From NCBI RefSeq assembly GCF_056712565.1, contig NZ_CM160072.1: a stretch of 64,000 bases of DNA; one strand, given 5' to 3'. Shown piece by piece: positions 36,086-38,200 of this stretch. The stretch's first letter is position 1; every line of letters begins with the position of its first letter. A program made the position numbers and the translations under genes. The notes under the pieces were generated by a model. That model had not been told where the DNA came from. It did no database searches and worked only from the letters and a program-made list of their open reading frames with translations.

Positions 36086-36931
36086 ATGTCCACGACATGG
36101 TTTGTAGGAGCCGACTGGCTCGCCGAACATATTGATGACCCGGAAATTCAGATTATCGATGCCCGCATGGCGTCGCCTGGACAGGAAGATCGTAACGTTG
36201 CTCAGGAGTATCTGAATGGACATATTCCAGGCGCAGTGTTTTTTGATATCGAAGCGCTTTCTGATCACACTTCCCCGCTTCCGCACATGCTGCCGCGCCC
36301 GGAAACGTTCGCCGTGGCGATGCGTGAATTAGGCGTTAACCAGGATAAGCACCTGATTGTCTATGACGAAGGTAATCTTTTCTCAGCCCCACGAGCATGG
36401 TGGATGCTGCGCACCTTTGGTGTAGAGAAAGTGTCGATTCTGGGTGGTGGACTTGCAGGCTGGCAGCGTGATGATCTGCTATTAGAGGAAGGCGCAGTAG
36501 AGCTGCCGGAAGGAGAGTTTAACGCCGCGTTTAATCCTGAAGCCGTGGTGAAAGTAACCGATGTATTATTGGCAAGCCATGAAAATACGGCGCAAATTAT
36601 TGATGCCCGCCCGGCTACACGTTTTAACGCAGAAGTTGATGAACCTCGCCCAGGTTTACGTCGCGGACATATTCCCGGTGCATTGAACGTTCCGTGGACG
36701 GAACTGGTACGTGAAGGCGAACTAAAAACGACCGATGAACTGGATGCGATATTTTTTGGTCGCGGTGTCAGCTACGACAAACCAATTATCGTCAGCTGCG
36801 GTTCTGGTGTAACAGCAGCCGTGGTTTTGTTGGCACTTGCGACGCTGGATGTGACAAACGTGAAACTGTACGACGGCGCATGGAGTGAATGGGGCGCACG
36901 GGCAGATTTACCGGTTGAGCCCGTAAAATAA
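36086..36931 (+). CDS. sseA: 3-mercaptopyruvate sulfurtransferase (tandem rhodanese domains)
   Basis: Translation from MSTTWFVGADWLAEHIDDPEIQIIDARM... with catalytic CGSGVTA. ATG at 36086 with GGAG RBS; the track ORF has a 53-codon upstream extension. Confidence 0.9.
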   Translation: MSTTWFVGADWLAEHIDDPEIQIIDARMASPGQEDRNVAQEYLNGHIPGAVFFDIEALSDHTSPLPHMLPRPETFAVAMRELGVNQDKHLIVYDEGNLFSAPRAWWMLRTFGVEKVSILGGGLAGWQRDDLLLEEGAVELPEGEFNAAFNPEAVVKVTDVLLASHENTAQIIDARPATRFNAEVDEPRPGLRRGHIPGALNVPWTELVREGELKTTDELDAIFFGRGVSYDKPIIVSCGSGVTAAVVLLALATLDVTNVKLYDGAWSEWGARADLPVEPVK

Positions 36932-36945
36932 GCTTTTTACAGGCA

Positions 36946-36978
36946 ATAAAAAACCGCCGAATCTGGCGGTTTTTTATT
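36946..36978 (+). terminator. Rho-independent terminator of sseA
   Basis: aaaaaaccgccgaatctggcggttttttatt: GC stem plus T6. Confidence 0.6.
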
Positions 36979-37109
36979 GCTGGTCTGGTTCGCGGCCTTT
37001 CCAGCAGGTTGTATTACCGTAGTAATGCAAGCGCGTCTCAGCGGACACAATACTCGCCAGTAACTCTCTTTTTGTCAAGTAAAAGAGAGTTATTATTGTT
37101 CTGTTAGTG

Positions 37110-37425
37110 TATTATCCACTGCGGCCCTTTCCGCCGTCTCGCAAGCGGGCGCTGGCTTAAGGAAAGGATGTTCCGCGACCGTTAGGGCAAGCGCGTCTCA
37201 GCGCTTGCTATCGCGGCAATATCGCCAGTGGTGCTGTCGTGATGCGGTCTTCGCATGGACCGCACAATGAAGATACGGTGCTTTTGTATCGTACTTATTG
37301 TTTCTGGTGCGCTGTTAACCGAGGTAAATAATAACCGGAGTCTCTCCGGCAACAATTTACTGGTGGTTAACAACCTTCAGAACAGCAAGTAAGCCCGAAT
37401 GCCGCCCTTTGGGGCGGCATGTTTT
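37110..37425 (+). ncRNA. ryfA: Candidate RyfA-type small RNA locus in the sseA-sseB spacer (boundaries approximate)
   Basis: About 450 bp with no ORF of 60 aa or more. Possible promoter TTGTCA-N16-TATTGT near 37073-37101. Terminates in a strong plus-strand hairpin with T-run at 37397-37425. From memory, ryfA occupies the sseA-sseB spacer in E. coli; the 5' end is a guess. Confidence 0.3.
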
Positions 37426-37426
37426 A
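37397..37426 (+). terminator. Intrinsic terminator at the 3' end of the ryfA-like locus, overlapping the sseB stop
   Basis: atgccgccc-tttg-gggcggcat followed by gtttt. Confidence 0.5.
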
Positions 37427-38200
37427 AATTATCCGGTTCTGTTTAAAGTCACGCAAAAAACCACCCCAGCGACGTTCATAGAATGGCGCAATATGTTCGG
37501 TAATAAAGTGGCTAATACCTTTTTCCCCTTTTTTCACCTGACAAATATCGATGGGTTCATCGCCAGGTAATGTATCGGTCGCTACACTTCCCGCCGCCTG
37601 AATAATTTCTTCGATATCACCATCGGCTTCAATGCCAATAAGTAAATTAGGCTGTGCCTCTTCGTTCTCTTTAATTGAACAAATAAAAGCACGCTTCACC
37701 GGCTTAATGGTTTTAAATAAGGTGGTAAGTGAATCAATCATTTGCGCTGGCGGCTCTGCGACCTCCGATAATATCAGCGATTCACCGCCTTCCAGTACTT
37801 CCTGGCTACTCAGCGGATTCCCTTCTTCACCAATCAACAAACTGATTTCACGCGGCATAAACTCTTTACCGGTTGGCAGTTTGGCATTAAGGAAGAGCGT
37901 TTCGCCAAGGGTCATCTCAAACAATGTGCGAACGGGCATTACGACAAATGCCTGTTCGTCTTCAACCGCCTGTTGAAGTGCTTCTAACGAGGTAAAAAAA
38001 GGAATGACGCTGGTGCCGTCTTCTTTTTCCCAGTGCTGTAAATCAAGCGCGCTATCTTCAACTACTGCCTCGCCCTGCGCCGCCGTACCAGGCACCCAGA
38101 CGGTGGATTCCAGTAGAGTACGGAAAAAGGCCGGGCGGTGAGCCGGTTCGGTTGCTGCTTTTTCCAGCAGGTCTTCAAGTTCGTTTTTTGTTTCGGACAT
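37424..38200 (-). CDS. sseB: Serine sensitivity enhancing protein SseB
   Basis: Translation from MSETKNELEDLLEKAATEPAHRPAFFRTL... (258 aa). The track ORF starts 3 codons upstream at GTG; ATG at 38198-38200 is used. Confidence 0.88.
   Translation of the reverse strand: MSETKNELEDLLEKAATEPAHRPAFFRTLLESTVWVPGTAAQGEAVVEDSALDLQHWEKEDGTSVIPFFTSLEALQQAVEDEQAFVVMPVRTLFEMTLGETLFLNAKLPTGKEFMPREISLLIGEEGNPLSSQEVLEGGESLILSEVAEPPAQMIDSLTTLFKTIKPVKRAFICSIKENEEAQPNLLIGIEADGDIEEIIQAAGSVATDTLPGDEPIDICQVKKGEKGISHFITEHIAPFYERRWGGFLRDFKQNRII

Follow-up and report, generated by a model that had tools for sequence, protein, structure and literature searches.

The 492-bp spacer between sseA and sseB in the window (the whole 64-kb stretch of DNA analysed here) most probably holds the E. 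coli orthologue of the timPR (ryfA/ryfB) type I toxin-antitoxin locus, functional in the structural and regulatory sense, with a probability that we put at roughly 0.93. This reading is based on matches to the Rfam ryfA and NCBIfam TimP families, the RefSeq annotation, an exact direct repeat, covariation of the two repeat copies, conserved promoters and the structure of the mRNA leader. Family membership, the exact repeat, the covariation and the conservation of both promoters and of all published structural elements are established here, and the locus is in the simple single-module form. The locus, toxin, antitoxin RNA, pairing site and variable-region allele have all been published before, so none of these is new, and databases already cover the locus through RefSeq (timP), Rfam (ryfA), NCBIfam (TimP) and the K-12 reference (timR). 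What the analysis adds is a fixed set of coordinates for all functional parts, including the TimR gene, and a settled start codon. An earlier interpretation made from the letters without database searches (the sequence-only reading) had recognised both the type I module and the meaning of the short direct repeat.

The sseA-sseB spacer and the TimP protein

The spacer begins at the sseA stop (36931) and ends at the stop codon of the minus-strand gene sseB (37424-37426), and is thus slightly longer than the 490 bp first estimated. sseB is convergent with sseA, and the locus lies upstream of sseB, between sseA and sseB, where timPR is found in E. coli. A whole-window scan against Rfam matched RF00126 (ryfA) to positions 37121-37425 of the plus strand over the full length of the model (positions 1-296 of 296), with a score of 317.7 bits against a gathering score of 80 bits, in line with the RyfA-type sRNA that had been proposed. 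The interval originally outlined for it, 37020-37426, does hold ryfA but clips timR, which reaches down to ~36948 and falls mostly beyond that interval. The scan gave further Rfam matches as well. Positions 36930-37430 are 100% identical to E. coli ATCC 11775, in which the RefSeq timP annotation falls exactly on 37267-37392 of the identical sequence and timR is unannotated. Of 5426 complete E. coli genomes, all but one (5425) carry some version of the spacer region, in a chromosomal location every time, and the homologous spacer of the E. coli K-12 reference is annotated with timR (b4811), ryfA (b4440) and timP (b4812).

The timP coding sequence (37267-37392, plus strand) encodes a protein of 41 amino acids, MKIRCFCIVLIVSGALLTEVNNNRSLSGNNLLVVNNLQNSK. 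It matches NCBIfam NF040796 (toxic_TimP) at 84.2 bits (curated cutoff 45 bits), with ORF residues 1-39 aligned to profile positions 1-39 of 40, which together with the RefSeq annotation upholds the suggestion of a TimP-like type I toxin. Residues 3-18 (IRCFCIVLIVSGALLT) form a 16-residue hydrophobic segment with a mean Kyte-Doolittle value of +2.3, the hydrophobic core that had been noticed from the translation, and basic residues are found at positions 2 and 4. The C-terminal 23 residues have a mean Kyte-Doolittle value of -0.8 and make up a polar, Asn-rich tail. In each of the 11 loci examined the ORF is open, encodes 38-49 amino acids and keeps the hydrophobic N-terminus; the sequence-only reading had made its proposal depend on such conservation of the small ORF. 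Homologues from other genera retain the N-terminal pattern MK(I/R)R(C/Y)FCIVL(I/V)VSGAL and are fully divergent in the C-terminal half; the range of ORF lengths is as reported in 2020 (PMC7667032). Across the first 17 codons, the three codon positions have 7, 6 and 9 variable sites, but the RNA is also structured, so these counts are not a coding signature by themselves.

Homologous proteins were searched with the 41-amino acid query, requiring shared 5-mers, which returned only Escherichia, Shigella and a few mislabelled fragments. A scan of genome contigs with the pattern GATGCGGTCNNNGCANNGACCGCAC, taken from stem-loop 4 (SL4) of the timP leader, was too strict and yielded 6 loci; two of these, in a Phycisphaeraceae MAG and in Branchiibius, were rejected as chance matches with no ryfA. 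More distant TimP homologues were gathered by a profile search of a representative library. One timP homologue lies outside the sseA-sseB context.

The plus-strand ORF was originally described with two possible starts, ATG 37255 or ATG 37267, and a TAA stop at 37390-37392. Both ATG codons are present and in frame with the stop, giving 45 and 41 amino acids, respectively, and the comparison among loci supports ATG 37267 as the probable true start. This codon is invariant in the 11 loci and lies 7 nt after the Shine-Dalgarno sequence GGA, and mutation of the homologous ATG in Salmonella abolishes TimP (PMC7667032). A start at ATG 37255, which would give the longer protein (MDRT-MKIR...), is called in some records (P0002, P0068) and was predicted for CFT073 (PMC8205139), but we consider it very improbable, given that this ATG sits in the SL4 loop, before the Shine-Dalgarno GGA, and is replaced by AAG in two of the 11 loci (L014 and L016). 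The NCBIfam profile alignment likewise begins only at residue 5 of the 45-amino acid form, and the 41-amino acid form is the one annotated in RefSeq and K-12.

The timP mRNA leader

The RNA matched by Rfam corresponds to the timP mRNA, comprising 5'UTR, ORF and terminator (37121-37425, plus strand), with the Salmonella transcription start falling at ~37123. Its predicted fold has a minimum free energy (MFE) of -137.7 kcal/mol (z = -6.7). The -10 region of the timP/ryfA promoter, G-TATTAT (37109-37115, plus strand), reads GTATTAT in all 11 aligned loci and lies 6-8 nt upstream of the ryfA 5' end; no convincing conserved -35 hexamer was found for this promoter in the 11-locus alignment. At the 3' end, a terminator scan, the Rfam consensus and the fold all identify an intrinsic terminator, AUGCCGCCC-UUUG-GGGCGGCAU followed by GUUUU (37399-37425, plus strand). 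Its stem (37399-37420) has 9 pairs, 7 of them G-C, and is followed in the DNA by GTTTT, as had been anticipated from the strong terminator noted just after the ORF; the tail overlaps the sseB stop codon. A terminator-like hairpin is also present within the timP ORF.

Previous work has shown that the timP leader forms four stem-loops (SL1-SL4), that TimR binds SL2 and that the Shine-Dalgarno sequence is trapped in SL4 (PMC11228461, PMC13000454), the TimR site having been located in SL2 (PMC11228461). Translation of timP needs a 7-bp pseudoknot that joins SL1 to SL3 (sites 1 and 3) together with pairing of site 2 with site 4 over 6 bp, and pairing of sites 1 and 2 locks the leader in an inactive state (PMC11228461, PMC13000454). 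All of these helices (SL1-SL4, the site 1-3 pseudoknot and the site 2-4 pairing) are able to form in the window sequence. SL1 (37126-37167, plus strand) contains pseudoknot site 1 (37150-37156, CGCUGGC) and is 100% paired in the 11-locus alignment, with compensatory changes. Site 2 (37177-37182, plus strand, GACCGU), the partner of site 4 in the active state and of site 1 in the inactive state, has its 6-bp pairing with 37244-37249 confirmed in the sequence. SL2 (37187-37208, plus strand), which includes the TimR-binding site at 37187-37203, is a hairpin of the Rfam consensus with 8 pairs, 95.5% paired across loci. SL3 (37210-37243, plus strand) presents pseudoknot site 3 (37224-37230, GCCAGUG) in its loop, and the 7-bp pairing of sites 1 and 3 is kept at 100% in the 11 loci, with one pair varying between G.U, A-U and G-C. 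SL4 (37244-37263, plus strand) hides the Shine-Dalgarno GGA (37257-37259), has 6 pairs that are 100% paired, and carries site 4 as its 5' arm (37244-37249).

Across the 11 loci, 98.7% of cells in the complete 5'UTR model, pseudoknot included, are paired and 9 pairs show compensatory changes, compared with 35-51% pairing in slid controls. The leader is 88% identical on average among these loci and SL2 is its single hypervariable segment. Residues that were mutated in Salmonella match the window bases at a single offset of 37122 (Salmonella +1 = 37123): G33 and C34 correspond to G37155 and C37156, G102 and C103 to G37224 and C37225, C57, C58 and G59 to C37179, C37180 and G37181, and G125 and C138 to G37247 and C37260 (the last two sets from PMC13000454). 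The window allele has A at 37178, and the predicted energies of its site 1-2 and site 2-4 pairings are only ~1 kcal/mol off those of K-12.

Taken with the published work, these elements are consistent with the following mechanism. The timP promoter, with its -10 element TATTAT (37110-37115), would drive an mRNA of ~300 nt from 37121/37123 to 37425, consisting of a 146-nt leader with the four stem-loops, the 41-codon ORF and the terminator. With the Shine-Dalgarno sequence locked in SL4, translation would need the SL1-SL3 pseudoknot (37150-37156 with 37224-37230) and also the invasion of SL4 by site 2 (37177-37182 with 37244-37249). The product would be a small protein carrying positive charge at its N-terminus, together with the 16-residue hydrophobic segment. 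A divergent promoter (TTGACA-17-GAGTAT, 37078 to 37050) would produce the minus-strand TimR, which would end at the terminator common to it and sseA. Pairing of the first 17 nt of TimR with SL2 (37187-37203) would open SL2 and destabilise the pseudoknot, and would thereby block initiation from ~60 nt upstream of the ribosome-binding site. In Salmonella, ryfA is the mRNA of TimP, a 38-amino acid inner-membrane toxin (PMC7667032), whose hydrophobic segment is an uncleaved Sec-type signal-anchor, and the protein inserts in the inner membrane, which becomes leaky on TimP overproduction (PMC7667032). Toxicity of the E. coli TimP is expected by analogy with the Salmonella protein, and TimR is predicted to repress timP translation here by base pairing, for which the proof comes from Salmonella only. 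More generally, we infer the transcript ends, toxicity, membrane targeting and TimR repression at this locus from published experiments in Salmonella, Shigella and E. coli, and the ends given for the TimR and timP RNAs in this strain are predictions.

The predicted TimR RNA and its pairing with timP

The 64-kb window contains exactly two copies of the 17-nt sequence GCAAGCGCGTCTCAGCG, one at 37027-37043 and the other at 37187-37203; the sequence-only reading had seen both copies, although its positions (about 37029 and 37188) are 1-2 nt off. No third copy was found in the window when up to 2 mismatches were allowed. Only 0.03 matches are expected by chance and two copies arose in none of 100 shuffles; similarly, the longest direct repeat in the spacer is 17 nt, compared with at most 13 nt in 1000 shuffles of the 492-nt spacer. 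In the light of the published timP/TimR and RyfA1/RyfB1 pairings, the upstream copy, read on the minus strand, corresponds to the 5' end of the predicted TimR and the downstream copy to the TimR target in SL2. The pairing sequence at the TimR 5' end, CGCUGAGACGCGCUUGC (37027-37043, minus strand), is the reverse complement of the upstream 17-mer, which matches 37187-37203 exactly over 17 nt. All 17 nt are complementary to SL2, with a predicted duplex energy of -37.9 kcal/mol.

The predicted antitoxin sRNA TimR (formerly RyfB or STnc2070) spans ~96 nt of the minus strand (36948-37043), with ends inferred from an alignment to the K-12 timR-type module. In K-12, timR (b4811) is a 100-nt RNA whose 5' end is at the pairing sequence and whose 3' end is in the U-run of the sseA terminator. 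The predicted fold of a 104-nt stretch covering TimR includes a terminator hairpin at the 3' end (MFE -37.5 kcal/mol, z = -4.5), and the bidirectional intrinsic terminator common to sseA (plus strand) and timR (minus strand), AAAAAACCGCC-GAATCT-GGCGGTTTTTT, is located at 36948-36975, as indicated by the sequence, the TimR fold and the K-12 timR end. The timR promoter (37050-37078, minus strand) has a -35 element TTGACA (37078 to 37073), a 17-nt spacer and a -10 element GAGTAT (37055 to 37050), and is conserved in 11 loci. On the plus strand, GTCAAG (37074-79) and AATACTC (37049-55) are invariant or nearly so and have a fixed spacing in these 11 loci, which come from several genera. From the position of this conserved promoter, TimR is predicted to start at 37043/37042, the first base of the repeat, which matches both the annotated 5' end of K-12 timR and the published TimR 5' end. 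The spacer thus appears to carry a divergent sRNA gene with an SL2-complementary 5' end and an intrinsic terminator, the arrangement that characterises timPR. Northern blots of TimR have been reported for CFT073 and APEC CH138 (PMC13188913).

When the TimR region was scanned permissively against Rfam, every family stayed below threshold, the best matches being IS128 (31 bits against 80) and, on the TimR strand, AgrB (28.9 bits against 40). A 12-bp palindrome surrounds the TimR -35 element and is perfect in two E. coli loci of the window or K-12 type (the window and L010). In L004 it has decayed to 85% and carries a gap of 24 nt; it was undetected in E. whittamii and is absent or different in other genera.

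The timR gene (37043 to 36948) and ryfA (37121-37425) do not overlap, and their complementarity is provided by the direct repeat, 160 nt apart. A cis-antisense overlapping type of the hok/sok kind was ruled out for this reason. The antisense sRNA repressor that had been proposed on general grounds needs refining, as it would be a divergent, non-overlapping sRNA with a short complementary 5' end and not a cis-overlapping one.

We compared the two copies across a covariation set of 13 loci, namely the window, K-12, three other E. coli, E. whittamii, Citrobacter, Superficieibacter and five loci found via the TimP profile search. Every locus of this set other than K-12 has a copy of its own SL2 region 91-110 nt upstream of the ryfA +1, over 17-20 nt; in K-12, the exception in position, the cognate copy lies 418 nt upstream of ryfA. 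In two E. coli loci (L004 and L009), the copy is interrupted by one C.A mismatch, leaving 4 + 12 nt. The pairing sequence differs between loci, with at least 8 variants among the 13. In a concatenated alignment of the timP site and TimR, 96.4% of cells are in standard pairs and 13 of the 20 pairs show compensatory (both-side) changes, values that were reached in none of 500 shuffles, and sliding the partner by 1-3 columns reduced pairing to 24-50%. The upstream copies were located via a search for complementarity, which biases these figures towards pairing; nonetheless, they are at the homologous position, beside promoter elements that are conserved independently. The register of the pairing site was set with a GCA[AG][GA] anchor, as a CCGT anchor was ambiguous in K-12-type sequences.

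Duplex energies were computed from 33-nt windows, together with an ungapped run scan permitting G.U pairs; pairing the entire UTR with 560 nt of the upstream antisense strand in RNAduplex had given meaningless full-length duplexes and was replaced by the 33-nt windows. Energies of the cognate timP/TimR duplexes lie between -36 and -44 kcal/mol, and each row of the cross-matrix has its cognate pair as the best, the one exception being the near-identical alleles of the window and E. whittamii.

These data agree with the published record. Pairing of TimR with timP in Salmonella has been proven by compensatory mutations, and the enterobacteria examined all have an upstream complementary sequence on the opposite strand followed by a terminator (PMC7667032). 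In Shigella, RyfA1 and RyfB1 share 17-18 nt of complementarity across a 5-nt variable region, and RyfB1 specifically lowers RyfA1 (PMC5333039). One could alternatively regard the 17-nt repeat as a neutral remnant of local duplication or a recombination scar with no pairing role. The locus does undergo duplication and repeat-mediated rearrangement, the K-12-type tandem module being an example, and a deletion in strain 06-00048 joins the two repeat copies. We give this view next to no probability, and it is already refuted by the covariation of both copies, which change together across genera while their flanks diverge, with the compensatory pairs described above. The upstream copy, moreover, is always at the predicted +1 of a conserved promoter, and the Salmonella experiments are direct proof of pairing. 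The suggestion in the sequence-only reading that the repeat is an sRNA-pairing sequence is thus borne out.

Alleles, RyfA function and related systems

The variable region of the window is CGCGT (37192-37196), within SL2. Four variable-region alleles have been listed, of which CACCC, CCCCC and CGCGT are RyfA1-like and TGTTT is RyfA2 (PMC5333039), and by this listing the window allele belongs to the RyfA1-like class. Allele-specific recognition between RyfB1 and RyfA1 has also been published (PMC5333039). Over at least 80% of its length, the extra module of the K-12 type was found in 1887 of the 5426 complete E. coli genomes. Because SL2 is the only hypervariable part of the leader, with so many pairing sequences among the loci, and given the frequency of the K-12-type module and the repeat-joining deletion in strain 06-00048, the SL2/TimR site could be a rapidly evolving specificity cassette, with recombination between the two direct copies reshuffling it. 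We regard this as speculative and rather unlikely. Were it true, several mutually orthogonal timPR alleles would be expected across E. coli populations, and in many genomes, such as those of the K-12 type, an orphan TimR, intact yet non-cognate, would persist, with alleles that might cross-talk or compete; only this population-level and orphan-antitoxin aspect would be new.

In E. coli, RyfA could be mainly a regulatory RNA, involved in stress resistance, fimbriae and virulence, with TimR as its partner or antagonist and the ORF dispensable or untranslated, a possibility that we consider doubtful but of some weight. In UPEC CFT073, ryfA alleles with a destroyed ORF complement all of the phenotypes of a ryfA deletion (PMC8205139), and in APEC CH138 a ryfA deletion is attenuated, whereas strains lacking timR or both genes resemble the wild type (PMC13188913). 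Overproduction of RyfA1 in Shigella removes ompC mRNA, and no ryfA1 protein was detected (PMC5333039). Against this stand the ORF, which is open in all 11 loci with its conserved hydrophobic N-terminus and matches a curated protein family, and the invariant start codon, SL4 and translation-switch elements, which make little sense in a purely non-coding RNA. In addition, the cited literature has established no RyfA trans target with a defined pairing site. As studies in E. coli report ryfA phenotypes that are independent of the ORF and see little change on deleting timR, a regulatory role may coexist with the coding role, RyfA then being a dual-function RNA, although we give this less than even odds.

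The closest characterised system is timP-timR of Salmonella Typhimurium (Andresen et al. 2020, PMC7667032; Eleftheraki & Holmqvist 2024, PMC11228461; Eleftheraki et al. 2026, PMC13000454). It belongs to the same Rfam and NCBIfam families and has the same divergent arrangement beside sseB, with SL1-SL4, the site 1-3 pseudoknot and the site 2-4 interaction as in the window and the mutated residues conserved base for base. TimP has 41 amino acids in E. coli compared with 38 in Salmonella, with a different C-terminal half, and the pairing sequence is 17 nt in the window compared with 18 nt of different sequence in Salmonella. Salmonella also has an extra gene, STM2534, between sseA and timR, which the window lacks.

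K-12 has an orthologous spacer, and its TimP (b4812) differs from that of the window at 2 of 41 residues. Outside SL2, its ryfA RNA is nearly identical to that of the window. However, K-12 has a TGTTT (RyfA2-type) variable region and an extra segment of ~325 bp, which sets its cognate timR (b4811) 418 nt upstream. Beside its ryfA is a second, unannotated timR-like copy of the window type, which is non-cognate (-26.3 compared with -35.8 kcal/mol for the cognate pair). The window has one module with a perfectly matched pair, whereas K-12 has a tandem module. The CGCGT of the window is among the three RyfA1-like alleles listed in the study of Shigella dysenteriae RyfA1/RyfB1, in which RyfB is a divergent RNA of ~100 nt whose 17-18 nt of pairing across the variable region gives allele specificity (Fris et al. 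2017, PMC5333039). The ryfA/ryfB pair is present twice in tandem in S. dysenteriae compared with once in the window, and the same authors read RyfA1 as a non-coding regulator of ompC.

The timPR locus is a divergent-class type I module, like tisB/istR-1 and zorO/orzO, and not a cis-overlapping antisense pair. The tisB/istR-1, zorO/orzO, shoB/ohsC and dinQ/agrB systems likewise combine a small hydrophobic toxin with a divergent, non-overlapping sRNA that has ~17-20 nt of complementarity to the toxin 5'UTR, and they likewise have a structured, occluded ribosome-binding site. Unlike in systems of the tisB/istR-1 type, the timP mRNA needs no nucleolytic processing according to the literature and uses a structural switch instead. 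TimP also has a signal-peptide-like N-terminus, unlike the toxins of those systems, with which it shares no sequence homology.

Variation in timR modules between sseA and sseB

Sequence comparison of the sseA-sseB spacer of E. coli K-12 (NC_000913.3, positions 1041-1555 of the compared locus) with window 36932-37120 revealed approximately 325 bp of extra sequence in K-12. The K-12 spacer carries two modules of the timR type, with a 16-nt remnant of the 5' end of ryfA between them. In K-12, the timR gene with an annotation (b4811) adjoins sseA and is cognate to the TGTTT-type SL2 (the TimR-binding stem-loop of the timP 5'UTR) of K-12 itself. The second copy is unannotated, adjoins ryfA, and is of the non-cognate window type (CGCGT), with both its promoter and its terminator retained. 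The predicted duplex energy in K-12 is -26.3 kcal/mol for this non-cognate, ryfA-proximal copy versus -35.8 kcal/mol for the cognate copy. The K-12-type extra segment was found over at least 80% of its length in 1,887 of 5,426 complete E. coli genomes.

A different rearrangement was identified in E. coli 06-00048 (NZ_CP015229.1, positions 1-1700 of the compared locus), where the loop of the sseA/timR terminator holds an IS3-family element (ISEcB1). To the right of this element, the timR body runs directly into timP SL2 at the repeat that the two share (in the window, 37027-37043 and 37187-37203). The stretch from one direct copy of the repeat to the other has thus been deleted. Both promoters and stem-loop SL1 are lost in the deletion, and the timP ORF is still annotated.

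A timP homologue outside the sseA-sseB context

A distant homologue of timP, encoding 39 aa, is located outside the sseA-sseB context in GCA_042851205.1 (DAXQHA010000014.1, positions 1-2520 of the compared locus) and has its own TimR-type upstream copy of 20 nt. Its neighbours are genes for an Hha-family protein and for a polymerase of the UmuC/ImpB type, a setting suggestive of carriage by an island or mobile element. Two copies of the palindrome ACTCCCTTTTAAGGGAGT are present in its promoter region.

Candidate regulatory elements and a leader variant in the window

A 12-bp perfect inverted repeat (TAACTCTCTTTT / AAAAGAGAGTTA, 8-nt gap) at window 37061-37092 has the TimR -35 box at its centre. 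Because the two start sites diverge from either side of it, neither transcript includes this repeat, which may be an operator. An identical copy is present in the other E. coli locus of the window/K-12 type (L010), and the repeat is degraded in the E. coli locus L004; E. whittamii and loci from other genera have either a degraded version or different inverted repeats in its place.

On the minus strand, a hairpin within the timP ORF (CCGGAGTCTCTCCGG, window 37334-37350) precedes a T-rich run, and the site has a terminator-like score. The sseB transcript may therefore end within timP, with an antisense overlap of the timP 3' end of up to ~90 nt.

Site 2 of the timP leader reads GACCGU in the window (variant position 37178), E. 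whittamii, and E. coli loci of the CACCC type, and GGCCGU in K-12 and every remaining compared locus. The window variant makes the inhibitory helix between sites 1 and 2 one pair shorter, with a predicted energy effect of only ~1 kcal/mol.

Annotation and other RNA elements

Window 36930-37430 corresponds to positions 1501-2001 of the compared locus from the identical strain, E. coli ATCC 11775 (NZ_CP033092.2). The RefSeq record of that strain annotates the timP CDS and has no annotation for ryfA RNA or timR. No Rfam family matched TimR above threshold, the best sub-threshold match on its strand being AgrB (28.9 bits versus a gathering score of 40). Elsewhere in the window, Rfam identified two known RNA elements, both on the minus strand: the iscR stability element (RF01517, 44681-44790, 136.5 bits) and sroE (RF00371, 24193-24284, 116.6 bits).
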